Shown here: positions 40,093 through 40,224 of the stretch, in pieces
Position numbering within the stretch: the first letter of the stretch is position 1
Layout: every line of letters starts with the position of its first letter
Virus record (IMG/VR): IMGVR_UViG_3300045988_128837
Location: 23,861-87,860 of that record
Length of the DNA: 64,000 nt
Source: a virus
Direction: 5' to 3' (one strand)
Position numbers and translations under genes: made by a program
Notes under the pieces: generated by a model
What the model was told of the DNA's origin: nothing
Databases searched by the model: none
The model's input: the letters and a program-made list of their open reading frames with translations, nothing else

Positions 40093-40121
40093 TTGACGAA
40101 CATGTTTAGAATTGTTATAAT
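40093..40121 (+). promoter_or_regulatory. Near-consensus plus-strand sigma-A promoter (TTGACG, 17 nt, TATAAT) with no downstream ORF.
   Basis: Plus-strand reading: TTGACGAACATGTTTAGAATTGTTATAAT. Confidence 0.45.
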
Positions 40122-40128
40122 GATTTAA

Positions 40129-40224
40129 AGGATATTATTATCCTTTCAGATTAAACAATTCTAAATATCAAATTCGATTTTCTATCGTGCTGCCAACACG
40201 GTAGATTCAAAAAATCTTTTTTTG
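40129..40224 (+). ncRNA. Candidate small RNA of about 95 nt, from the promoter TSS to an intrinsic terminator.
   Basis: Hairpin AAAGGATA-tta-TATCCTTT. Second hairpin GATTTT/CTATCGTG-CTGCCAA-CACGGTAG/AAAATC followed by TTTTTTT. Intergenic, antisense to the surrounding minus-strand genes. Confidence 0.3.

Follow-up and report, generated by a model that had tools for sequence, protein, structure and literature searches.

To our knowledge, almost all phage small RNAs (sRNAs) whose function is understood come from phages of Proteobacteria. The c4 RNA of P1 and P7 and the CI RNA of P4 are small structured immunity antisense RNAs whose loop sequences pair with leader sites and block downstream translation; both are processed from the transcript of their own target, c4 controlling icd-ant and CI the P4 alpha operon. 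The CopA/CopT pair combines a strong constitutive promoter and a YUNR U-turn kissing loop with pairing near a ribosome-binding site (RBS) that controls replication, CopA being strictly cis-encoded. CopA/CopT of plasmid R1 is listed in PMC5415839, and lambda OOP and P22 sar are short cis-antisense phage RNAs free of open reading frames (ORFs), each with its own promoter and terminator (PMC5415839, PMC12197685); the word 'Gram-positive' is not used in a 2025 review of phage-derived sRNAs (PMC12197685). Here we describe a locus in a 64,000 nt stretch of phage DNA (positions 23,861 to 87,860 of IMG/VR record IMGVR_UViG_3300045988_128837; hereafter the window, whose first nucleotide is position 1) that very likely encodes, on its plus strand, a structured non-coding RNA. 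Its comparative features suggest that this sRNA pairs with the messages of two of the phage's own DNA-replication proteins, one resembling single-strand-binding protein (SSB-like) and the other a DNA ligase, which it probably switches off.

Judged by its matches, the window is a member of a human-gut phage family with genomes of ∼160 kb, and since ∼50 IMG/VR contigs of 80–169 kb share the sRNA locus at 95–100% identity, this family, with ∼50 near-complete IMG/VR genomes, is a common one. The GenBank phage collection held no close or near-identical record to the window. Diverged relatives were found via homologues of the 216-aa protein encoded beside the locus that keep the same gene order; their lineages comprise L119–L124, L126 with L127, L136 with L125, and L135 with L137. 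The intergenic gap that holds the sRNA measures ∼190–200 nt in all of these diverged relatives, and in L119–L124 it is almost identical although the 216-aa protein is only 61% identical. Within the main family sequence variation at the locus is low and consistent with the structure described below. A search of IMG/VR and the JGI metagenomes for more diverged copies returned only the main family or nothing.

Consensus folding with RNAalifold, using either seven or eight sequences, retained exactly three helices, namely a 5'-terminal hairpin (H1), a second hairpin (H2) and the stem of an intrinsic terminator (T2) (Table 1). In the seven-sequence alignment 13 pairs were changed on both sides, as compared with 5.3 ± 1.5 in shuffled alignments (0 of 500 reached 13) and at most 3 in slid controls; with eight sequences the count was 10. 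In H1, which in the window genome forms the perfect 8-bp hairpin AAAGGATA/TATCCTTT (40127–40146) described in an initial annotation of this DNA, compensatory exchange has affected two pairs (A-U to G-C, U-A to C-G) and L137 carries a U·G pair. Compensatory changes affect seven of the nine pairs of H2, whose stem is wholly replaced between lineages (UCUAUCGUG/CACGGUAGA by UCUGGUGUG/CACACCAGA, and this by GUUAUUGAG/UUCAAUAAC or GUUAUUGAU/AUCAAUAAC), and its loop, CUGCCAA, is identical in all lineages. T2 holds 15 pairs across the lineages through transitions and one double change. Several G·U pairs (U40185·G40201, the closing pair in L135, the H1 U·G of L137 and two to three pairs in T2) would be C·A mismatches if the minus strand were transcribed; as they fit the plus strand only, the RNA was assigned to that strand. 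On this comparative evidence the locus is very likely a real plus-strand sRNA gene without an Rfam match: Rfam 15 gave nothing at the locus at the gathering score, and at a permissive threshold only chance-level matches (E at least 0.57). The proposal of an ORF-less plus-strand sRNA unit made in the initial annotation is thus backed by a conserved promoter, 10–13 compensatory pairs, plus-only G·U pairs and a conserved terminator, and the check for conservation in related phages that it had called for found the promoter, H1, H2 and T2 kept in five lineages.

The RNA would be ∼175 nt long, with predicted ends at 40128 and 40303, closing at T2. The initial annotation had given it a length of about 95 nt, ending in a second extended hairpin followed by TTTTTTT. 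This element is present in the window genome, where H2 can be extended by GATTTT/AAAATC and seven T residues (T7) stand at 40218–40224. However, the strong stem lies 12 nt away from the T-run, RNAfold ignores the extension, and T7 is lost in L125 (GTTTCTTGTTTATG), L135 (ACCTTTAGTAG) and L137, so that this hairpin was rejected as the terminator and the conserved 3' end is T2, located 40 nt beyond T7 in the last codons of the minus-strand 121-aa gene. A 178-nt RNA (40128–40305) gave a folding z-score of −7.1. A long-range rod seen in the single-sequence fold (40145–40172 paired with 40221–40248) was discarded, as it is broken in many variants and missing from the eight-lineage consensus. The core ACAAUUC of the linker following H1 is conserved, and no pairing target for it turned up. 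The unit contains no ORF with a start codon (there is no AUG) and an RBS, as had been claimed; in the relatives, substitutions concentrate at the third codon positions of the minus-strand frames flanking the unit, which marks these minus-strand ORFs as real and the overlapping plus-strand ORFs as not. A tRNA-Gly anticodon-loop mimic (loop CU-GCC-AA), a 6S-like RNA and a phi29 pRNA-like RNA were considered and set aside, with no supporting feature or Rfam match found.

The promoter reads TTGACG-17-TATAAT (40093–40121), exactly as first annotated, and has in addition the TG of an extended −10 element. It is the only plus-strand site in the 64 kb with a match of at least 11/12, and TG is present in it. 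Composition-preserving shuffles yielded 2.25 matches of at least 11/12 per strand, and 0.08 when TG was required. Because 11/12 matches are not rare at this composition, the support for the promoter comes from its conservation and not from the match itself: in L125, L135, L136 and L137 the −35 hexamer, TG, −10 hexamer and 17-nt spacing are kept, with spacer letters and flanks diverging. The spacer measures 17 nt in every lineage, and AAGG begins 6 nt after TATAAT in all of them. The A-tract, TTGACG, the 17-nt spacing and TGnTATAAT together predict a strong promoter of the host sigma-A type, in which the A/T-rich tract at 40080–40092 would act as an UP element. The promoter spacer also takes part in a 15-bp inverted repeat (40102–40116/40154–40168) that pairs it with positions +27 to +41 of the RNA and forms a 67-bp quasi-palindrome enclosing the −10 element and H1; in L135 both arms are changed to match (TTTAGAATTGT to TTTGAATTGT). 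This repeat may serve the sRNA promoter as an operator, or it may fold into a structure in read-through RNA of the minus strand.

As a cis-antisense RNA needs no invariant loop, the complement of the H2 loop was sought elsewhere. CTGCCAA, which reads UUGGCAG in minus-strand RNA, occurs nine times on the plus strand of the window (eight besides H2) against 2.3 expected. Two of these eight copies are situated in the loops of stems of at least 9 bp (14019–14043 and 54140–54160) and one in that of a 5-bp stem (141–157), a stem of 8 bp or more being expected at a random site with a probability of 0.0075. The hairpin at 14 kb belongs to the leader of gene 12830–13942 (minus), which encodes an SSB-like protein of the YorF family (PF27337; PF00436 in many homologues), and that at 141–157 to the leader of a minus-strand gene with its AUG at 67, corresponding in relatives to a 663-aa NAD-dependent DNA ligase. 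The three loops (UUUGGCAGA, UUGGCAG and UUUGGCAGG) all start with UUGG, a YUNR motif, and each is a complement of the loop in the sRNA. Full pairing of the 14-kb hairpin is possible only on the minus strand, where it includes two G·U pairs; relatives differ in this stem by changes that wobble pairing tolerates, and lineage L176 has another stem (CUAUCAGC/GAUGAUAG) below an unchanged loop. H2 and the 14-kb hairpin being both strand-assigned and conserved, the complementary loops thus lie on opposite strands. The ssb-like and ligase leaders share a common layout consisting of the UUGGCAG-loop hairpin, a spacer of ∼20–30 nt, the complement of region A (the unstructured part of the sRNA between H2 and T2), the RBS and the start codon.

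A duplex scan of start regions with the whole sRNA proved uninformative, since shuffled RNAs scored equally well, and scans restricted to single regions were therefore adopted. Complementarity to phage mRNAs had been another suggested check, and among 93 start regions the ssb-like and ligase leaders were the top two partners of region A, with duplex energies of −41.1 and −34.8 kcal/mol, followed by −26.5 kcal/mol for the next (mean −17.8 ± 4.2 kcal/mol). The same two leaders ranked at the top of 2557 minus-strand tiles, the sRNA's own locus excepted. At the RBSs, which are purine-rich, the U-run of the sRNA pairs via A-U and G·U. In terms of sequence, plus-strand 13925–14000 repeats part of the sRNA gene (40178–40262) in collinear order, with CTGCCAA, two exact 12-mers and a 6-mer; when 4228 tiles were compared with 40176–40270, 13925–14000 came first (z ∼8) and 61–180 second (z ∼6).

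We therefore favour, with a probability of roughly one half, an sRNA that is a trans-acting antisense regulator with kissing-loop recognition, repressing the ssb-like and ligase mRNAs and also acting in cis. An abundant sRNA would be made from the host-sigma-A promoter, and its CUGCCAA loop would first kiss the UUGGCAG loops presented on hairpins in minus-strand mRNA 5' leaders. The U-rich region A would then zip along the leader up to and over the RBS, covering the start codon too in the ssb-like message, and the outcome would be blocked translation and/or double-strand-specific cleavage. With an SSB-like protein and a ligase as predicted targets, the sRNA would set the level or timing of DNA-replication functions. 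Transcription, pairing in vivo, and the direction and timing of regulation are all what we infer from the DNA. As the RNA is fully complementary to minus-strand transcripts that cross the 121-aa/216-aa gene junction, it probably acts in cis there too, at the junction between the block formed by the MazF-like, 342-aa and 121-aa genes and the 216-aa gene.

Among lineages the evidence for such pairing is mixed. The ssb leader of L174 (45 nt), the only one available from the most diverged lineage, had its best partner in the L137 sRNA (−41.3 kcal/mol versus −20 to −31 kcal/mol with the others), with which it shares a 15-mer missing in other lineages, and each region A haplotype in the main family retains long matches to the ssb leader. 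Several points nevertheless weigh against a trans-acting antisense regulator. L137 and L174 come from different samples, and that they stand for one genome is an assumption. The L176 ssb leader reached −35.1 kcal/mol with the window-type sRNA and ∼−21 kcal/mol with the L125 and L136 types. In the main family the leader is nearly invariant and region A has two to three haplotypes, which leaves no compensatory signal. Furthermore, there is similarity between the ssb and ligase leaders themselves, so that the three-way similarity could reflect a shared minus-strand regulatory module, and duplex energies are generally inflated because the plus-strand RNA is U-rich and the minus-strand mRNA A-rich; shuffled whole-sRNA controls reached −32 to −38 kcal/mol. 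Finally, relative to the linear site the kissing hairpin is placed upstream, and the geometry is not collinear.

A bolder version, which we consider doubtful, makes the sRNA the hub of an RNA-based replication switch, born by duplication of the ssb-like start region behind an antisense host-type promoter and governing a kissing-loop regulon. One invariant loop would then address the SSB-like gene, the ligase gene and perhaps other replication or repair genes, and copy number or the transition from early functions to replication would be set in trans, on non-initiator genes, in the manner of plasmid countertranscripts; the large gut phage would possibly be kept as a plasmid-like prophage.

Table 1. 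Features of the sRNA locus, its neighbouring genes and the candidate target leaders (window coordinates)
Feature	Position	Strand	Description	Support
A/T-rich tract	40080–40092	plus	AAAAAATTTCATG, UP-element-like, directly upstream of −35	nearly unchanged in all lineages
−35 hexamer	40093–40098	plus	TTGACG (TTGACT in L135 and L137)	conserved in five lineages
Extended −10	40113–40121	plus	TGtTATAAT; TG 40113–40114, TATAAT 40116–40121	invariant in all lineages
H1	40128–40145	plus	5'-terminal hairpin, predicted start ∼40128; consensus 7 bp AAGGAUA/UAUCCUU	
5' linker	40146–40180	plus	conserved core ACAAUUC(U)AAAUA; holds right arm of 15-bp inverted repeat	
H2	40181–40205	plus	hairpin with 9-bp stem and invariant 7-nt loop CUGCCAA (40190–40196)	compensatory changes
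Region A	40206–40263	plus	unstructured, U-rich, proposed target-binding; includes T7	no conserved structure
T2	40264–40303	plus	intrinsic terminator: 15-bp stem (40264–40297), 4-nt loop, U6	conserved
Candidate target 1	13936–13998	minus	ssb-like leader; RBS AGAGG (13956–13952), UUG start 13942	complementary to and collinear with sRNA 40186–40263
ssb-leader hairpin	14019–14043	minus	loop UUUGGCAGA, complementary to H2 loop	stem co-varies
Candidate target 2	85–157	minus	NAD-dependent DNA ligase leader	hairpin 141–157 with loop UUGGCAG; 85–130 complementary to region A up to RBS
Weaker third site	54051–54160	minus	terminator hairpin 54140–54160 with loop UUUGGCAGG, then stretch partly complementary to region A	−31.9 kcal/mol
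MazF/PemK-like protein	41651–42160	minus		
342-aa protein	40620–41648	minus	faint integrase-like match	
121-aa protein	40240–40605	minus	no family assigned; last gene of MazF-like/342-aa/121-aa block	third-codon-position excess, synteny
Gap	between 121-aa and 216-aa genes		192 nt, holds sRNA unit	
216-aa protein	39397–40047	minus	no family assigned; leader from 40048 antisense to sRNA promoter and 5' part	
Antirepressor	38489–39313	minus	Bro-N/KilAC	

The rival that survives best, though we hold it to be unlikely, is a purely cis one, in which the convergent promoter and its RNA act on local minus-strand transcripts by transcriptional interference or duplex-triggered cleavage. The effect would be to insulate the MazF-like/342-aa/121-aa block from the 216-aa operon, or to change the stability of the block mRNA through the 3' overlap, as with lambda OOP or 3'-overlapping antitoxin RNAs, and the similarity to the ssb and ligase leaders would be an evolutionary relic. 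The RNA is indeed perfectly antisense both to the gap (40128–40239) and to the final ∼64 nt encoding the 121-aa protein (40240–40303), so that the position between two genes given in the initial annotation holds for most of it, the 3' part lying across the coding sequence. The gap has no convincing minus-strand promoter or terminator, which makes read-through likely, and the order MazF-like/338–342 aa/121 aa/sRNA/216 aa is syntenic in all lineages, with variable genes further downstream. However, cis complementarity holds for any sequence, and an invariant 7-nt loop on a fully replaced stem is left unexplained, as are the complementary loops on hairpins elsewhere in the genome and the finding that the two strongest pairing partners are both leaders of replication genes.

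Hairpins that bind proteins likewise tend to combine an invariant loop with a covarying stem, and the RNA might thus be a decoy or sponge for a protein that recognizes this loop, not an mRNA-pairing molecule, with regions A, B and C being paralogous minus-strand leader/promoter modules, for example phage sigma sites. We regard this as quite improbable. In its favour, the ssb and ligase leaders and region A are alike and show the same order of hairpin, spacer, A-rich block and RBS, and the phage's own sigma factor adjoins the ssb-like gene. On the other hand, TTGTTTAGTT occurs exactly three times, with one-mismatch copies at chance level, and is therefore not a general promoter; the similarity extends through the RBS to the start codon, which a promoter does not need; and the loops are complementary and not identical, wobbles placing H2 on the plus and the 14-kb hairpin on the minus strand.

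That the locus makes no functional RNA at all, the hexamers being AT-rich noise (the objection anticipated in the initial annotation) and the palindromes DNA-level sites such as operators or a cruciform, appears highly improbable: a promoter match of 11/12 is expected by chance, as stated above, and both the 15-bp inverted repeat and a CATGTT-GACG-AACATG palindrome overlap the promoter, but DNA-binding sites keep their sequence and show no covariation, whereas here the stems compensate around a fixed loop, the wobble pairs are strand-specific, and the hexamers, TG and spacing are invariant across five lineages.

Least credible of all is a CRISPR-repeat mimic of the Racr or type V-A Cracr kind, with H2 as a Cas12a handle soaking up or redirecting host Cas12a, which we discarded because the diverged relatives lack the GUAGAU signature (CCAGAG in L125, AUAACA in L135, the handle being lost in L137 too). 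The resemblance that suggested it is as follows: H2 reads AUUU-UCUAU...GUAGA-U and agrees with 13 of the 15 handle positions, the unit follows the promoter-repeat-terminator order of phage examples already known (PMC10651486; bioRxiv 10.1101/2024.10.29.618823), and a gut-virus V-A repeat unit from the Racr paper supplement (PMC10651486) shares TTTCTATCGT...GTAGAT. Against this, chance alone would give 0.42 occurrences of the relaxed handle motif in each window, and the H2 stem has a 15-nt insertion relative to real handles. A scan of 185,579 species genomes revealed no array or copy of the extended hairpin, and an array-type scan gave seven single matches only, in unrelated environmental bacteria; best alignments to seven V-A repeats ranked 8th to 628th of 3196 tiles, in the chance range. 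Among the solitary repeat units listed in the accessible part of the Racr paper (PMC10651486) there was no contig identifier of this phage family; SRUFinder requires at least 90% coverage and a bit score of at least 41.1 for a known-repeat match. A type I toxin-antitoxin system was likewise rejected, as the overlapped gene encodes a 121-aa hydrophilic protein, no small hydrophobic toxin is present on the overlapping mRNA, the only small minus-strand ORF at the locus (33 aa, 40182–40283) is not hydrophobic, and the MazF-like gene 1.4 kb upstream of the sRNA belongs to a type II toxin family.

The window has a G+C content of 34% and its minus strand carries essentially all genes, those adjoining the sRNA included, in agreement with the initial annotation; the flanking genes do not present divergent ends, as had been stated, but are arranged in tandem, with the 121-aa gene ending and the 216-aa gene beginning at the gap. 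Searches of Pfam, PHROGs, PADLOC and NCBIfam gave no match for the 121-aa and 216-aa proteins and only weak integrase-like matches for the 342-aa protein. The sRNA and its upstream genes are constant among relatives, unlike the slot directly downstream of the 216-aa gene, which is occupied by the antirepressor, a 145-aa unassigned protein or a 230-aa AAA ATPase (38489–39313; L119, L126, L125, L135). The 216-aa protein cluster contains 712 sequences; a profile search of this unannotated family led to 119 clusters at 90% identity, in which D129, D134 and H137 are invariant. Distant members (loci L138 and L140) are found in mobile elements and defence-like islands, beside WYL, HIRAN, AAA_23 and Z1-domain genes, and as a comparable gap upstream is missing from distant homologues, the sRNA is no fixed companion of the 216-aa family. 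In relative L057 an insertion of ∼434 bp without evident ORF (L057 3547–3988, corresponding to window 40052–40059) sits between the 216-aa gene RBS and the sRNA promoter, flanked by a near-perfect (7/8) 8-bp cactccta duplication; it may be a miniature mobile element.

Window 40001–42000, comprising the MazF-like/342-aa/121-aa block, stands out from the rest of the window by its distinctly lower G+C content (0.288 versus ∼0.34) and weaker GC skew. A near-consensus minus-strand promoter (42179–42151) belongs to the MazF-like gene alone, which has no recognisable antitoxin partner. Further upstream, an IS110-family insertion sequence occupies 42594–44438, with its transposase at 43025–44311 (minus strand) and a 431-nt non-coding tail (42594–43024); it is precisely missing from all ∼50 relatives, in which 42593 joins 44439 directly, and the chromosomes of gut bacteria (GCA_027494375.1 is one example) carry the identical transposase in multiple copies, which provides a clue to the host. 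A phage sigma-70-family factor (regions 2 and 4; 14153–14695) is encoded directly upstream of the minus-strand replication/recombination cluster 11550–13942, whose members include the SSB-like YorF gene and the gene of an AAA/Sak4-like annealing protein. At 54140–54209 (minus) two tandem intrinsic terminators follow a small gene, the second bearing the loop UUUGGCAGG. The GC skew is monotonic, with no switch that would mark a replication origin in the window. Positions 30245–30382 (minus) scored 46 bits with the Rfam tRNA model, with 81 nt in place of the 15-nt anticodon arm, and ARAGORN called no tRNA; the element may be a phage tRNA interrupted by an intron or in some other way.

If the favoured reading of a trans-acting, kissing-loop sRNA is true, RNA-level control of replication genes would extend to an uncultivated gut phage, and a compact sigma-A-driven regulatory part would be gained. 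It offers a testable mechanism, namely a loop code (CUGCCAA/UUGGCAG), extended pairing over RBSs and two named targets. As the sRNA falls in no described sequence family, it is classed by kind, as a base-pairing regulatory phage sRNA. With Racr (PMC10651486) and Cracr VA1 (bioRxiv 10.1101/2024.10.29.618823) it shares a stand-alone promoter-hairpin-terminator arrangement in a gut phage and a superficial Cas12a-handle look, but here the handle is not conserved, no matching CRISPR array was found and the similarity is at chance level. Like OOP and sar it would be transcribed against the gene flow, with overlap of a 3' end (as in OOP/cII) or an intercistronic region (as in sar/ant); those RNAs have an overlapping target only, whereas here there is also an invariant loop with above-chance complementarity to two distant leaders. 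The likeness to CopA/CopT consists in a strong promoter driving a stem-loop with a GC-rich loop of 6–7 nt, the target loop being UUGGCG in CopT and UUGGCAG here, and in the predicted loop-loop contact with subsequent longer pairing near the RBS of a replication function. It differs in that the complementary loops sit elsewhere in the genome, an SSB-like protein and a ligase take the place of an initiator as predicted targets, and kissing is deduced from complementarity. With c4 and CI it has in common a small structured phage RNA whose loop would pair with an mRNA leader not encoded on the opposite strand, but it has its own convergent promoter and terminator, a length of ∼175 nt and predicted replication targets 26 and 40 kb away, and shows no sequence or Rfam similarity to them. 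Less common among its features are the likely origin by duplication of the target's start region and the proposed small replication-gene regulon under one invariant loop. By analogy, its logic would be closest to that of c4/CI and of CopA/CopT-type countertranscripts and, in its local cis aspect, to that of OOP and sar.

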